From: a virus
Taxonomy: Duplodnaviria; Heunggongvirae; Uroviricota; Caudoviricetes
IMG/VR virus record: IMGVR_UViG_3300005573_001627
DNA: 44,292 bases
Reading direction: 5' to 3' (one strand)
The notes below the pieces were generated by a model that saw only the letters and a program-made list of their open reading frames with translations, was not told the origin of the DNA and searched no databases. Numbering within the stretch: position 1 is the stretch's first letter; each line of letters opens with the position of its first letter. The position numbers and the translations under genes are program-made. Below are positions 21,122-25,310 of this stretch, one piece after another.

Positions 21122-22192
21122 ATGTTAGATGAAAGAGATTATGTAGAAGAGAAAAGAATTAGAAGGACAGATGGCTCTAATCAAAATATTGATGCTTGGC
21201 GAAGGATAAATAAAGATATAGAAGAAGACGTAAGCATTCCGAAAGAGATAGAAGAAGACCAAGAGTTCTCTGTTGAAGAAGAGACTCCAGAAAGAATTAT
21301 TCAACAGCCTGAGAAAAAGAAAAAAAGGACTTCTGAAATCAGTGTTCTTGAAACCGGATTTACTGCTTCAAAGAAAGCGCCTCCTATCTCTCAAATTGAT
21401 GCAGGAACATCTGCAGACGTATCAAGTCCTAAACGTATCTATTATGCACAGAAACTAAATCCTGATTCTGAAAATGAATTGCCCAAGGTTGTTTTATCTG
21501 CAACACAAGAGAATCTACCAGACGGAGTTGCAAATCAATATGAAGAAACTACAATTACAATCAAGATTAATTTCTATAAAACTGATTGGGATAAAATATA
21601 CAGAGTCATTAAATCTCAAAGAGATACAATCAAACAATTTGCTAGACGCGCAATGGTTCAAGCAACAGATGAGATTCTTGAAAGAAATAAAATTAAGAAG
21701 AGACTTATAGAAGAACTTAGCCAAAGAGAAGTATTGGCAGAATTAAAAGAGAAGTTAACCAAAGAATTAATCGTTGAAAGAACTATTTGGCAATCAAGAT
21801 ATAAAGAACGAGACCCAGATGCTGTAAGATTATATCCGGAATTGAATGAAGAAGTCAAAAAAGACCTTGAAGAAGAAGAACAAGAAAAAGAACAATTGCT
21901 AAAACGTCTCCAAAGACTGGATGATAAAAGGACCAAGAAAGAAGCAAAAGAGGCCCGGGCCAGAGCAAGGGCCCTACAAAAACAGCCAGAGGATAATGAA
22001 AAAGAGATAGAAATGTCTGATGATATAGTTCAGGAAGACCTTGAAAATATGCAAAATGGCCCAGGACCATTAGAAGATTCTGCCCTAAATAATGGTATTG
22101 GATTTGATACAGAAGGAGTTATGCCGGAAGAAATATGTGAGGAGGTGATTTCTGATGTCAATGAGAGCGACGAACATCCGTTGGGTCAATAA
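21122..22192 (+). CDS. Acidic coiled-coil protein with possible ribbon-helix-helix segment
   Basis: GAGGTGA RBS; TITIKINFYKTDWDKIYRVIKSQRDTIKQFARRAM has a beta-helix-helix pattern. Confidence 0.7.
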   Translation: MLDERDYVEEKRIRRTDGSNQNIDAWRRINKDIEEDVSIPKEIEEDQEFSVEEETPERIIQQPEKKKKRTSEISVLETGFTASKKAPPISQIDAGTSADVSSPKRIYYAQKLNPDSENELPKVVLSATQENLPDGVANQYEETTITIKINFYKTDWDKIYRVIKSQRDTIKQFARRAMVQATDEILERNKIKKRLIEELSQREVLAELKEKLTKELIVERTIWQSRYKERDPDAVRLYPELNEEVKKDLEEEEQEKEQLLKRLQRLDDKRTKKEAKEARARARALQKQPEDNEKEIEMSDDIVQEDLENMQNGPGPLEDSALNNGIGFDTEGVMPEEICEEVISDVNESDEHPLGQ

Positions 22193-23138
22193 AAAAGGTG
22201 AACAGAGAATCGGATATTATATGGATGAGTTCTTAGGAATCAATCTGATGGGCATCCCTAACTATCTGAATAAGGCTTGGGATGTTGTTGGTATCATTTC
22301 AGGTCATGGAAAGGTACGTATAGGCAAGAGCACGCTCGCACAACAGATAGGATACTTCCTTGCGTGGCTGCTCGCAGGTGGGCGCATGGAGTCGCGCGTG
22401 GACCCGGACGGTGTTAAGCGTTGGTTTGTCGCGCGCGAGCCAAAGAAGCCGGTAAGATTTTCACTTGAAGAGAACATTGTATTCTCACCTGAGGACTTAA
22501 TGAAGTCCGCTTCAAATCTTAGAGACAAGTATGGGAGGAACCAAGTAATAATTTATGATGAAGGTAGGACTGGTCTTGACAGCGCGCGAGCAATGCAAGC
22601 AATCAACAAGGCGATGCAAGACTTCTTCCAGGAGTGCGGGCAGCACGGGCACATCATCCTTATAGTCTTACCAGATTTTTTCAAACTGCATGAGGACTAT
22701 GCGACGGTCCGTTCACTTTTTCTTGTCGATGTCTTCGCCGACCGACAACTTCGAAGAGGATGGTTCAACTTTTACAACGAAACACAGAAAGAAAAACTAT
22801 ATGTCTATGGAAAAAAAGTTTTGGGCCTGTACAATCGTTACTCGCAGGCGAGCCCGAGCTTCTACGGACGGTTCACATCGTTCTTGCCTATCGATGATAA
22901 GGCTTACGACCTCGCTAAACAGAAAGCACTCCGTAAAAAACAGTTCTTGAGGAATGAAAGACGATTCAAGAACCAAAGAGACGGTGCAATTTACCTTTTG
23001 AAGAGAGAAACAGACATGAGTTGTGAAGAAATCGCTACTGAACTCTCTGCGGTCACCCAACAACAGTTGTCTGAAGACCATATACGCAATGCAATCAAGT
23101 CTATCACGCATGAAAAGGATGAAGAAGAGATAATCTAG
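22155..23138 (+). CDS. P-loop ATPase with C-terminal HTH (morphogenesis/genome-extrusion ATPase typical of spindle-shaped and pleomorphic archaeal viruses)
   Basis: Walker A variant VGIISGHGKVRIGKST, Walker B VIIYDEG, C-terminal MSCEEIATELS HTH; GGAGGTGA RBS. Confidence 0.8.
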   Translation: MSMRATNIRWVNKKGEQRIGYYMDEFLGINLMGIPNYLNKAWDVVGIISGHGKVRIGKSTLAQQIGYFLAWLLAGGRMESRVDPDGVKRWFVAREPKKPVRFSLEENIVFSPEDLMKSASNLRDKYGRNQVIIYDEGRTGLDSARAMQAINKAMQDFFQECGQHGHIILIVLPDFFKLHEDYATVRSLFLVDVFADRQLRRGWFNFYNETQKEKLYVYGKKVLGLYNRYSQASPSFYGRFTSFLPIDDKAYDLAKQKALRKKQFLRNERRFKNQRDGAIYLLKRETDMSCEEIATELSAVTQQQLSEDHIRNAIKSITHEKDEEEII

Positions 23139-23667
23139 GTCTAATGTACGTACCGTCATGTACCTAAGTACCCTTTTTATGCGTAAAAATTTCATATAGC
23201 CAAGAGAAAAATAGGATTTTGGTTGTTTTTTCTACAAACCGACGGGCGGCCCCCCCAGCGGTAGGGTATTTATCATTACAATATATATTTTGGAGTATAA
23301 AAAAGGTGCAAAATAACCACTATGGGGGTACGAAAATGGTCATTTTGGGGCGCGCGGTCGTTTTTGGATGACCTTCCATATAGGTTCATCAGTCAGAATA
23401 GGGGTAGGGTCTCGGTTATTTGAAAGAATAACCCCTGCGCGGTATCAAAAACCGGCACTGGCTTGCCCAAGAAGATGCTGGGAGAATTATATAATCCAAG
23501 ATAACAAATTATATAAAGGCCAATCCCTTTAAAAGAATAAGATGTCTTCTTGTAGACATAACCAATAAACTAGATAGGCCCAATGCTATTATTATATAGC
23601 AGGATGATATTCGTATTTCCTCCAGGGCCTATCTACTTCTAATCTAATCAAGGATGCTTTTAAGATG

Positions 23668-23695
23668 CGTTCGTATTTCTCTTCTTATACGAAAG
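23668..23695 (+). other. lox/dif-like recombination site 1: CGTTCGTATTT-CTCTTC-TTATACGAAAG
   Basis: 11-6-11 imperfect inverted repeat; right arm identical to site 2; abuts the TATA box of the recombinase gene. Confidence 0.65.
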
Positions 23696-23696
23696 G

Positions 23697-23704
23697 TTTA
23701 TATA
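23697..23704 (+). promoter_or_regulatory. TATA box TTTATATA of the recombinase gene
   Basis: Preceded by GAAAGG (BRE-like); only TATA-like element just upstream of 23799. Confidence 0.55.
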
Positions 23705-23798
23705 TAAGTGTGCTTTGATTATCTCGTAAAACTTTCGCCATATCTATTTTGAAATGGCCCTATCACTGTGACAGTGACGTGACAGTGAGGAGCGCAGA

Positions 23799-24485
23799 TT
23801 GACAGAAGAAAAAAAGGTGCTAACAAAGAAAGAGTTGAAGAAGGCGTATGAAGCCGGACTTATTGATGAACAGAAATTCAAAGAGGAACTATTTCTAATA
23901 GAAACAACTAAACCAAAGCAGAGACAGAAAAAGAAATTGCCGGTTGCTTTAACTGAAGATGAATTTGGTAACTTGATACGAAACACCAAGAAGGACAGAT
24001 TCAAGTTAGCATTCTTATTTGGCTTTGGAGCCGGAATGAGATTGAGCGAGATTCTTGGAGGTGTGAGAGAGAACGGAGAGATAATGCCGCCGCTCACTGC
24101 AGACAAGATTGATATGCAAAGGAAGACTATTTATATAAAGGACGCCAAGGGAGGGAAGGACCGGATAGTTCCTGTGCCCAAGGGGTTGAAGATTGAACAT
24201 ATAAAGTTACTTCCACTTAACCAAGGGTACTCAAATATAAAGTCAGCAAGAAGAGCCTTTGAAATAGCGTTCAAAGTTGCTGCAGAACGTGCCGGACTAC
24301 TAAAGATTAAACCTGGACTTCACTTTCATAGTCTAAGACATAGTTTTGGTACACTGTTGGCAAATAGTGGTATGCCCATCCATCATATAAGAACATTGAT
24401 GGGCCATTCAAATATATCTACTACTAACATCTACTTAGAGGCCAATCCAAAGGATGCTTTGAAGAGTTATGAGGAATTGTTCTAG
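23799..24485 (+). CDS. Tyrosine recombinase (XerC/D-like catalytic domain, no core-binding domain)
   Basis: GMRLSE (R), KGGKDR (K), HSLRH (HxxR), MGH, TTNIY (Y); TTG start with GAGGAG RBS. Confidence 0.92.
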   Translation: MTEEKKVLTKKELKKAYEAGLIDEQKFKEELFLIETTKPKQRQKKKLPVALTEDEFGNLIRNTKKDRFKLAFLFGFGAGMRLSEILGGVRENGEIMPPLTADKIDMQRKTIYIKDAKGGKDRIVPVPKGLKIEHIKLLPLNQGYSNIKSARRAFEIAFKVAAERAGLLKIKPGLHFHSLRHSFGTLLANSGMPIHHIRTLMGHSNISTTNIYLEANPKDALKSYEELF

Positions 24486-24518
24486 GGCAAGCGAATAAAA
24501 AATAAGTTTTGCGAAAGA

Positions 24519-25060
24519 AATAGCCCTTTTTTAGCCCTTTTCCTATGTTAAACCTTTCGCATTTGATACCTTATACGAAAGCCGTTTCCTATAATGTATC
24601 GTCGATATAATATGGACTATATATGTGACTTTATAAGGATATTACGTTACTGTCACAGAAGCGAAAAATGAGCATATGAAGGCACATTAAAATAAGCCCT
24701 ATTTTGTCCTTAAAAGACCTTATTTAAGGGTTTATTTATACTTATTCGGTGAGGCGAAAATCAAGGCATTTATATGCCTTTATATAACACCCCTAAAAGG
24801 GCTAAAAAGGGCATTATTTGACATCCAGGCGCAGGCATCCTTTATACGTATTTTTAAGTATGGTTGAAAAGGGCATTATTTGACCTTAAATGCCTTGTTT
24901 TAGATGCAGGCATGGGTGTCAAAAAACGATTTTTTTCGTTTTTCCTGAAAGGATAATTTTTTGCATATTTTTTAATTATTTGCTATTTTTTGCCTATTTT
25001 TTGATAACAATAAGTGTTATCAATTAATTATCAAAAAATTACTACTAATTAGTGAAATAA
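24519..25060. other. Putative replication origin: AGGGC-core iteron-like repeats followed by phased T tracts
   Basis: 18-bp direct repeat AAAAGGGCATTATTTGAC at 24805-24822 and 24867-24884; inverted AGCCCTTTT copies at about 24522-24541 and 24695; palindrome AAGGCATTTATATGCCTT 24763-24780; AT-rich tract from about 24930. Confidence 0.45.
24554..24581 (+). other. lox/dif-like recombination site 2: CTTTCGCATTT-GATACC-TTATACGAAAG
   Basis: 11-6-11 imperfect inverted repeat 68 bp downstream of the recombinase stop; candidate attP/resolution site. Confidence 0.7.
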
Positions 25061-25310
25061 AAAGAGATTAAAAAGGGTTAAAAATCACTACTGCATAGTT
25101 AAATTTTATATGCAGAAAATTTAAAAAGATGGTTTATTTATCCTCTATAAGAAAAAAGGGGTTTAACTTCTTGTTTGATTTTAGCAAGAAGAAAAACAGA
25201 AAAACAAAAAAAGATTATTTTGTTTTTTCTTATTTTGTTTTATCTGTGATACTTTAATTAAATTTTTGGTTTTATGTTAAAAGGAGTAACATAAAATAAG
25301 TTTTAACAAA

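Follow-up and report, generated by a model that had tools for sequence, protein, structure and literature searches.

Site-specific recombination of the Xer/dif type is a known class of mechanism, and a large circular replicon needs multimer resolution. Resolution sites typically carry an accessory site on one side, while attP sites have arms on both sides. In the internal resolution site used by TnpI of Tn4430 and Tn5401, extra motifs for the same recombinase lie on one side of an inverted-repeat core, between the core and the gene, where they overlap the promoter and provide both selectivity of resolution and autoregulation. Linked xerA/dif modules are known from some archaea (PMC5357621; PMC2958812, Cortez 2010). 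Here we describe a locus within a 44,292-nt stretch of viral DNA (the whole stretch analysed, hereafter the window), in which the gene of a 228-aa tyrosine recombinase has a 28-bp dif-like site upstream (site U) and another one downstream (site D).

The locus resembles archaeal XerA/dif in that the catalytic domain of the protein is nearest to XerA and the 28-bp sites are of the 11-6-11 type, with the arm core of the dif-type site of the likely host phylum. It differs in that the protein has no core-binding domain (228 aa, with relatives down to 168 aa) and belongs to a clade of its own, and in that the module is virus-borne, with two sites per genome, a 9-bp palindrome per arm and an accessory half-site at 64 bp. 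As in the linked xerA-dif modules, a site stands just in front of the gene, with a TATA-like box next to it on the gene side, and, as in the XerS/difSL system of streptococci, a single recombinase would be paired with a nearly symmetric site. The upstream composite site may also be likened to the TnpI resolution site of Tn4430 and Tn5401, layout alone being compared; TnpI, however, is a full-length enzyme with two direct-repeat accessory motifs, whereas the viral locus has one half-site at 64 bp and a mirror-image copy beyond the gene. The pdif modules of Acinetobacter plasmids have Xer-type borders in alternating or mirror-image arrangement with variable cargo between them, and the comparison with these modules made in the initial annotation is apt, as the two viral sites mirror each other in the way that sites alternate around dif modules. 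The pdif modules need the host XerC/XerD and carry resistance or other cargo, whereas the viral module encodes its own recombinase, its border spacers are incompatible and no movement was seen.

Cre/loxP of phage P1 likewise combines a phage tyrosine recombinase with a site next to its gene on a large circular replicon, and the inner 8+8 arm bases of loxP nearly coincide with those of site U. The count of 15 of 16 positions on which a loxP likeness had been proposed is arithmetically right (14 of 16 in the case of site D), but it does not reflect homology to Cre, which is among the most distant structural matches of the viral protein; in addition, loxP has 13-bp arms and no accessory half-site. 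Because Cre is distant and the same bases are common to the dif site of the host lineage, the likeness is incidental, and the meaningful relative of the viral site is the dif site of the host lineage rather than loxP. Our search of the literature on DPANN/Pacearchaeota virus recombinases and on archaeal elements that exploit Xer found no description of this recombinase family or of the composite site.

Two dif-like sites around a short recombinase gene

Site U (23668..23695) and site D (24554..24581) lie 886 bp apart, start to start. Each consists of two inverted arms built on TTCGYAT (TTCGTAT in site U) and separated by 10 bp, and the central 6 bp read CTCTTC in site U and GATACC in site D (GGTATC on the other strand). 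The right arms of both sites are identical over 11 nt. The two sites, their spacers, their distance and their common right arm are therefore present exactly as initially annotated. The geometry is that of a dif-type site, with inverted arms of ∼11 bp, a 6-bp centre and the arm core of the palindromic site of the host phylum, although the palindrome reaches 9 bp per arm in the viral sites versus 11 in the dif-type ones. In contrast to the single copy per replicon expected of a dif-type site, two cores were found in the 44 kb scanned. A 24-nt pattern combining arms and spacing matched only sites U and D in the window (0.79 matches expected at up to 2 mismatches), so that the proposed search of the rest of the window for like-armed sites returned no others. 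Counting both strands, the window contains 11 copies of the arm core TTCGYAT, 6 of which fall within 23610-24579. This clustering of arm cores at the gene, together with the uniqueness of the combined pattern, confirms that sites U and D are real and rules out chance.

The two sites had also been described as directly oriented. This holds for the inner arm bases only, since the flanks and the accessory half-sites described below are mirror images. Neither core is assigned a strand here, and reading a direct or inverted orientation from the cores themselves was abandoned, as arm, centre and flank identities were inconsistent across nine loci. The A-rich polarity of the cores on the sense strand is probably that of the coding strand, which has a strong purine skew, and the only reliable mark of orientation is the accessory half-site.

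Several other repeats are found in this part of the window. A further reverse arm core (ATACGAA) lies within the recombinase reading frame at 23976-23982. Motifs of the AAAAGGGC type are repeated at 24521-24541, 24795-24822 and 24862-24884; the copies on either side of site D are inverted (94% complementary over 17 nt), and further right the motif recurs in direct repeats, which adjoin an AT-rich stretch (24900-25300, 21% G+C, with many A/T repeats). Similar motifs also come after site D in a related locus (L163), and the region formed by the AAAAGGGC repeats and the AT-rich DNA may be an origin or a region for accessory factors. In the 5′ leader of the recombinase gene, a tandem GTGACAGTGA pair (23763-23788) has an inverted 15-nt copy (14 of 15 positions) past site D, at 24644-24658. 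The leader copy sits in an insertion of ∼45 nt that two close relatives (L201 and L162) do not have. By a rough estimate, the 15-nt inverted repeat (23766-23780 and 24644-24658) has about even odds of arising by chance in a region of this size; its significance is borderline and it was set aside.

The recombinase gene (23799..24485, plus strand) encodes 228 aa from a TTG start placed after a GAGGAG ribosome-binding motif, with an alternative in-frame GTG start at 23817. The sole domain match of the protein was PF00589 (residues 51-217, E 1.2e-23, 84 bits with the cut-off at 27). Across 30 aligned homologues, the catalytic residues R81, K117, H177, R180 and H203 were invariant and Y212 was present in at least 90% of the sequences. 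When solved structures were searched with a profile, XerA of P. abyssi came first (E 1.3e-28), followed by IntI4, XerA of T. acidophilum and XerD. The XerA model NF040815 aligned over profile positions 73-261 and scored 97 bits against a cut-off of 220, which is short of a full-length XerA. The predicted structure (pLDDT 81.6) comprises two short helices (residues 10-36), a linker and the catalytic fold, and Foldseek matched it with a probability of 1.00 to IntI4, XerA and XerH, Cre appearing far lower in the list. An N-terminal core-binding domain of ∼100 aa is missing from the 228-aa protein; many of its relatives have just 168-186 aa, and relatives of that size lack even the two short helices. 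Judging from sequence and structure prediction, the protein is a Xer-like enzyme devoid of the usual core-binding domain. In a quick tree of limited sampling, the short recombinases formed a clade of their own (SH-aLRT 97), apart from 12 dif-linked recombinase genes of host-lineage chromosomes.

Accessory half-sites and promoter region

The accessory half-site of site U (23734..23740, plus strand) reads TTCGCCA and follows the left arm at 64 bp, measured from TCG to TCG, near the expected transcription start of the recombinase gene. In the case of site D, the accessory half-site (24510..24517, minus strand; TGCGAAAG on the plus strand) precedes the right arm by 64 bp, measured from CGA to CGA. 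It is an inverted copy of the left arm of site D and the mirror image of the half-site of site U. This half-site was one of three extra ones in the initial annotation. Another, at 23610..23619 (plus strand), is an exact copy (10 of 10) of the start of the left-arm core of site U and is located 48 bp to the left of that site; it is present in the window alone, not in relatives, and its role is uncertain. The third, at 24584-24594, turned out to be weak (5 of 11 positions, with no TTCG), and the half-site at 23734-23740, which is conserved in relatives, was absent from that list.

A BRE/TATA-like box of the recombinase gene (23691..23706, plus strand) begins inside the right arm of site U and ends before the accessory half-site. 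The overlap between site U and these elements, already pointed out in the initial annotation, is thus visible in the window and kept in two relatives, L201 and L162, and many other relatives have similarly placed TATA-like boxes. From its sequence and position, the box is expected to act as the recombinase promoter.

The 64-bp architecture is conserved. Among the relatives, a forward arm core was found at +63 to +65 from the left arm at 32 of 42 upstream sites (∼1 expected by chance), and a reverse arm core at −63 to −65 from the right arm at 14 of 23 downstream sites; 5 more half-sites lie one helical turn further out. The accessory half-site was on the gene side in all cases and on the other side in none, which makes site U and site D mirror images. 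At upstream sites, the 38 bp that separate core and half-site usually contain a TATA-like box, so that the promoter is bracketed by putative binding sites. In long forms of the gene the accessory half-site is directly adjacent to the start codon. The shortest forms (L003, L103, L112 and L121) differ in that the core ends at the start codon, and the 64-bp half-site falls in the coding sequence, at a conserved Phe-Val-Lys stretch that appears to double as coding sequence and binding site. A different arrangement was observed in L130, where a single recombinase gene is preceded by two complete cores in tandem (1662-1689 and 1707-1734) with 17 bp between them.

Related loci and the dif-type sites of the likely host phylum

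A metagenome protein collection yielded 727 homologues of the recombinase, of which the few named ones are labelled Pacearchaeota, and an identical protein is encoded on a contig of 169,557 bp. Among 185,579 species genomes (one per species), only 6 loci exceeded ∼30% identity, and 4 of the 6 were in implausibly labelled bins. This near-absence from binned genomes suggests that the recombinase family resides mainly on unbinned mobile elements. IMG/VR returned neither relatives of the recombinase protein nor matches to the site pattern.

We compared 80 metagenome loci plus several contigs of close relatives. A position matrix detected 113 sites in the related loci versus 0-2 in shuffled copies. 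A first version of this matrix had drifted into A-rich sequence and was tightened, and even the tightened matrix gave false positives: ‘sites’ on the same strand ahead of small genes in L111, L130 and L101, with the look of an integron-type array, were rejected because L130 shows that ribosome-binding regions resemble the A/G-rich right half. Final counts were therefore made with a strict arm-N16-arm pattern. This pattern was present within 130 bp upstream of the start codon in 30 of ∼78 loci (∼2 expected) and within 130 bp downstream of the stop codon in 11 of ∼78 (∼1 expected), with 9 of these 11 at 51-68 bp. Homologous genes without flanking sites had been anticipated as evidence against a recombinase/site pair; instead, sites accompany the related recombinase genes. 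The arms also co-vary: both sites of L199 have GTCG/CGAC arms, and both sites of L163, like both sites of L196, have TGTTCG/CGAACA arms. That the arms change together at the two sites of a genome suggests that protein and binding site are co-evolving, and supports the proposal, drawn from these sequence comparisons, that sites U and D are the cognate sites of the encoded tyrosine recombinase.

Seven distinct loci encode a protein of 61% identity or more, and six of them (the window, L201, L162, L163, L196 and L199) have an upstream as well as a downstream core; no core was found in the seventh, L197. The DNA enclosed by the cores varies. It consists of the gene alone in the window, of the gene and ∼240 bp in L201, of the gene and a second, unrelated recombinase in L162 and L199, and of the gene and three small ORFs in L163 and L196. 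The second recombinase (1174-1902 in L162, 4184-4804 in L199) has 206-242 aa, comes directly after the first one and shares 23% identity with it over the aligned stretch; it is also encoded on the contig of P0023, and no copy was found within the 44 kb of the window. At every two-site locus, nine in total, the spacers of the two sites differ in both orientations. The expectation that sites U and D should exchange poorly with each other agrees with their incompatible CTCTTC and GATACC spacers and with the same kind of mismatch at all nine loci.

More distant relatives mostly have one site, and at these single-site loci the gene heads an operon when the site is upstream and ends an operon when the site is downstream. 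Terminal overlaps, as small circular replicons would give, were looked for in the related contigs and none were found. Upstream of the locus there is a conserved gene (22155-23138 in the window) with a weak match to Zot-like P-loop proteins. It is free of inteins in the window, and its relatives (1-2013 in L196, 327-2582 in L201 and 1-1159 in L199) are interrupted by intein-type LAGLIDADG/Hom_end domains.

For comparison with cellular sites, we used 401 genomes of the phylum that holds a Pacearchaeota MAG with distant members of the family, and a second sample of 301 genomes (702 in total). The arm pattern occurred in 23 of the 401 host-phylum genomes, compared with 6 for a control pattern, nearly always as a single copy. 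The majority of these matches are perfect dif-type palindromes with a TGTATA-like centre and the same arms as the viral sites, and in 13 of the 23 genomes a tyrosine-recombinase gene adjoins the site. In the 12 cases where the gene could be delimited, the site lies 1-553 bp upstream (within ∼100 bp in 9 of them) of a recombinase of 264-314 aa and is immediately followed by a TATA-like box. Loci listed with this dif-on-promoter arrangement, in which the xerA-size gene encodes 264-281 aa, are L174, L176, L177, L179, L180, L182, L183, L184, L187, L189 and L194, with the site at about position 1501 of each, except for L187 (position 248). A dif site placed directly on the xerA promoter is apparently undescribed for these archaea. 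Used as a control set, 29 host dif sites contained the 64-bp half-site in just 1-2 cases.

The viral sites share arm core and geometry with the dif site of the likely host lineage, of which they appear, by sequence, to be copies. The likeness is marked in site D, which matches the dif-type site of two genomes (G120 and G503) at 20 of 24 positions, with the whole left arm and the first five of the six spacer bases identical. Host sites with either complete viral spacer were absent from the 401 and 301 genomes sampled. Two further observations were made in cellular genomes. A viral-type site with an A-rich inner right arm is present in genome G243 (contig 1; 1501-1524 of L173), with no recombinase gene within 1.5 kb; such a site may be what is left of a viral-type element or serve as its target. 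Also, the short recombinases of two host MAGs (G001 and G002) have no recognisable sites adjoining them.

Multimer resolution and competing readings

The reading that we favour, with a probability of about one half, is that of a virus-borne, Xer/dif-type site-specific recombination module that is built on a minimal recombinase and serves multimer resolution. Most likely, dimers of the 228-aa protein would bind the 28-bp cores, and at each core a further protomer would occupy the half-site, which is 64 bp or six helical turns away. Either composite site would probably recombine with no partner other than its own copy on a sister genome or within a dimeric one, and this same-site crossover would turn multimers of the large, presumably circular viral genome into monomers, with XerA at dif and TnpI at the Tn4430 resolution site as analogues. 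In the upstream composite site, the core would cover the BRE, and the half-site would fall near the expected start of transcription. Since this composite site brackets the TATA box, its occupancy should also switch the gene off. The unrelated spacers and the mirror-image accessory sites, on the other hand, should prevent a crossover between sites U and D, by which the gene would be lost or inverted. What the sequences show is the presence of the sites, their linkage to the gene, the co-varying arms, the conserved 64-bp spacing and the likeness to host dif; from these we infer that the protein binds and is catalytically active, that it takes part in multimer resolution and autoregulation, and why there should be two sites. 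One site suffices for resolution, and the retention of two, as mirror images and not in tandem, in 6 of the 7 closest loci is unexplained by multimer resolution; our confidence stays near one half for this reason.

Under a division of labour put forward in the initial annotation, site D would be the attP or dimer-resolution site and site U an operator. An operator role for site U is plausible, as it lies on the promoter region. The division between the sites is not supported: both are complete cores with a half-site of their own, 6 of the 7 closest loci have retained the pair, and the arms co-vary.

The main rival explanation, which we consider doubtful, is that the gene and the inner half-sites form a cassette, similar to a dif module or IMEX-like. 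Sites U and D would be either the left and right junctions produced when a small circle, with the gene and one site, inserted into a dif-like site of the virus, or the borders at which genomes with the same two incompatible sites exchange the cassette. The accessory half-sites would then lie inside the segment beside each junction, like the arm sites of an integrated element, and in the window, L201, L001 and L084 the outer arms indeed match each other, as do the inner arms. Tight site-gene-site units of 634-886 bp occur in three distant lineages (the window, L002 and L084), and the variable content between the sites of close relatives, ranging from the gene alone to the gene with a second recombinase or with three small ORFs, would suit a cassette. 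So would the disagreement between gene and backbone, whose identities are 68% and 82% (flank) between the window and L201, and 91% and 75% (flank) between L163 and L196. Exchange of a cassette at the sites was considered for this last pair and rejected, as the identity breakpoints do not coincide with the sites and the block of high identity ends elsewhere. Moreover, the spacers match in none of the nine two-site loci in either orientation, and hence there is no sign of recent insertion; the locus occupies the same syntenic position in all close relatives; and single-site loci never have half-sites on both sides of the core, as an unintegrated attP of such a kind should. A more specific form of this idea strikes us as unlikely, namely a self-encoded ‘dif module’ of less than 0.9 kb that is mobile or exchangeable between viral, plasmid and possibly cellular dif-like sites through paired same-site crossovers, which would amount to natural cassette exchange, driven by a recombinase of 170-230 aa without a core-binding domain.

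Integration into the host chromosome at or near dif, with site U, site D or both as attP and with the viral recombinase acting with or without the host XerA, is an equally improbable account. The identity of the viral arms with those of the host-lineage dif site and the extended match of site D to the sites of G120 and G503 would be expected from it, and elements that exploit Xer in bacteria use comparable partial dif mimics (PMC5357621). Against it, neither viral spacer occurs in host sites of the genomes sampled (a count subject to sampling), so that among these 702 genomes and the related contigs there was neither a matching attB nor a provirus junction. No transition between viral and cellular DNA was seen in the related contigs, where gene order is the same on both sides, and the accessory sites are one-sided, unlike those of a classical attP. 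Close homologues are very rare in binned genomes, and the near-absence of the family from cellular genomes argues against routine integration. We find no support for the earlier reading of site D as an attP.

Finally, an invertible switch like the Hin segment of Salmonella, which carries its own recombinase gene, or a protein bridge that does not recombine but represses the gene by looping it out, would fit the mirror-image composite sites on either side of the gene, the inward-facing TATA-like boxes at site D in the window, L162 and L002, and the fact that in single-site relatives the gene may point either way with respect to the composite site, but is very unlikely, as inversion needs reverse-complementary spacers and the inverted central 10 bp match at only 2-5 of 10 positions in eight of the nine loci (2 of 10 in the window; 8 of 10 in L162, whose centre is nearly palindromic), a single orientation is found in all five contigs that derive from the same virus or from near-identical ones, and looping alone does not need complete, catalytically competent cores.

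As for the recombinase itself, a protein that proved active alone would rank with the smallest tyrosine recombinases for which a 28-bp target is defined. It is roughly half as large as Cre, and this small size together with the naturally varied spacers would then be of practical interest for genome engineering. The module would also offer a testable case of specificity and directionality without a core-binding (clamp) domain. For the biology of these viruses, the favoured reading would mean that the system by which the host unlinks its chromosomes has a counterpart encoded by large viruses of ultrasmall archaea themselves, from which the clamp domain has been stripped and which has a phased third putative binding site instead.
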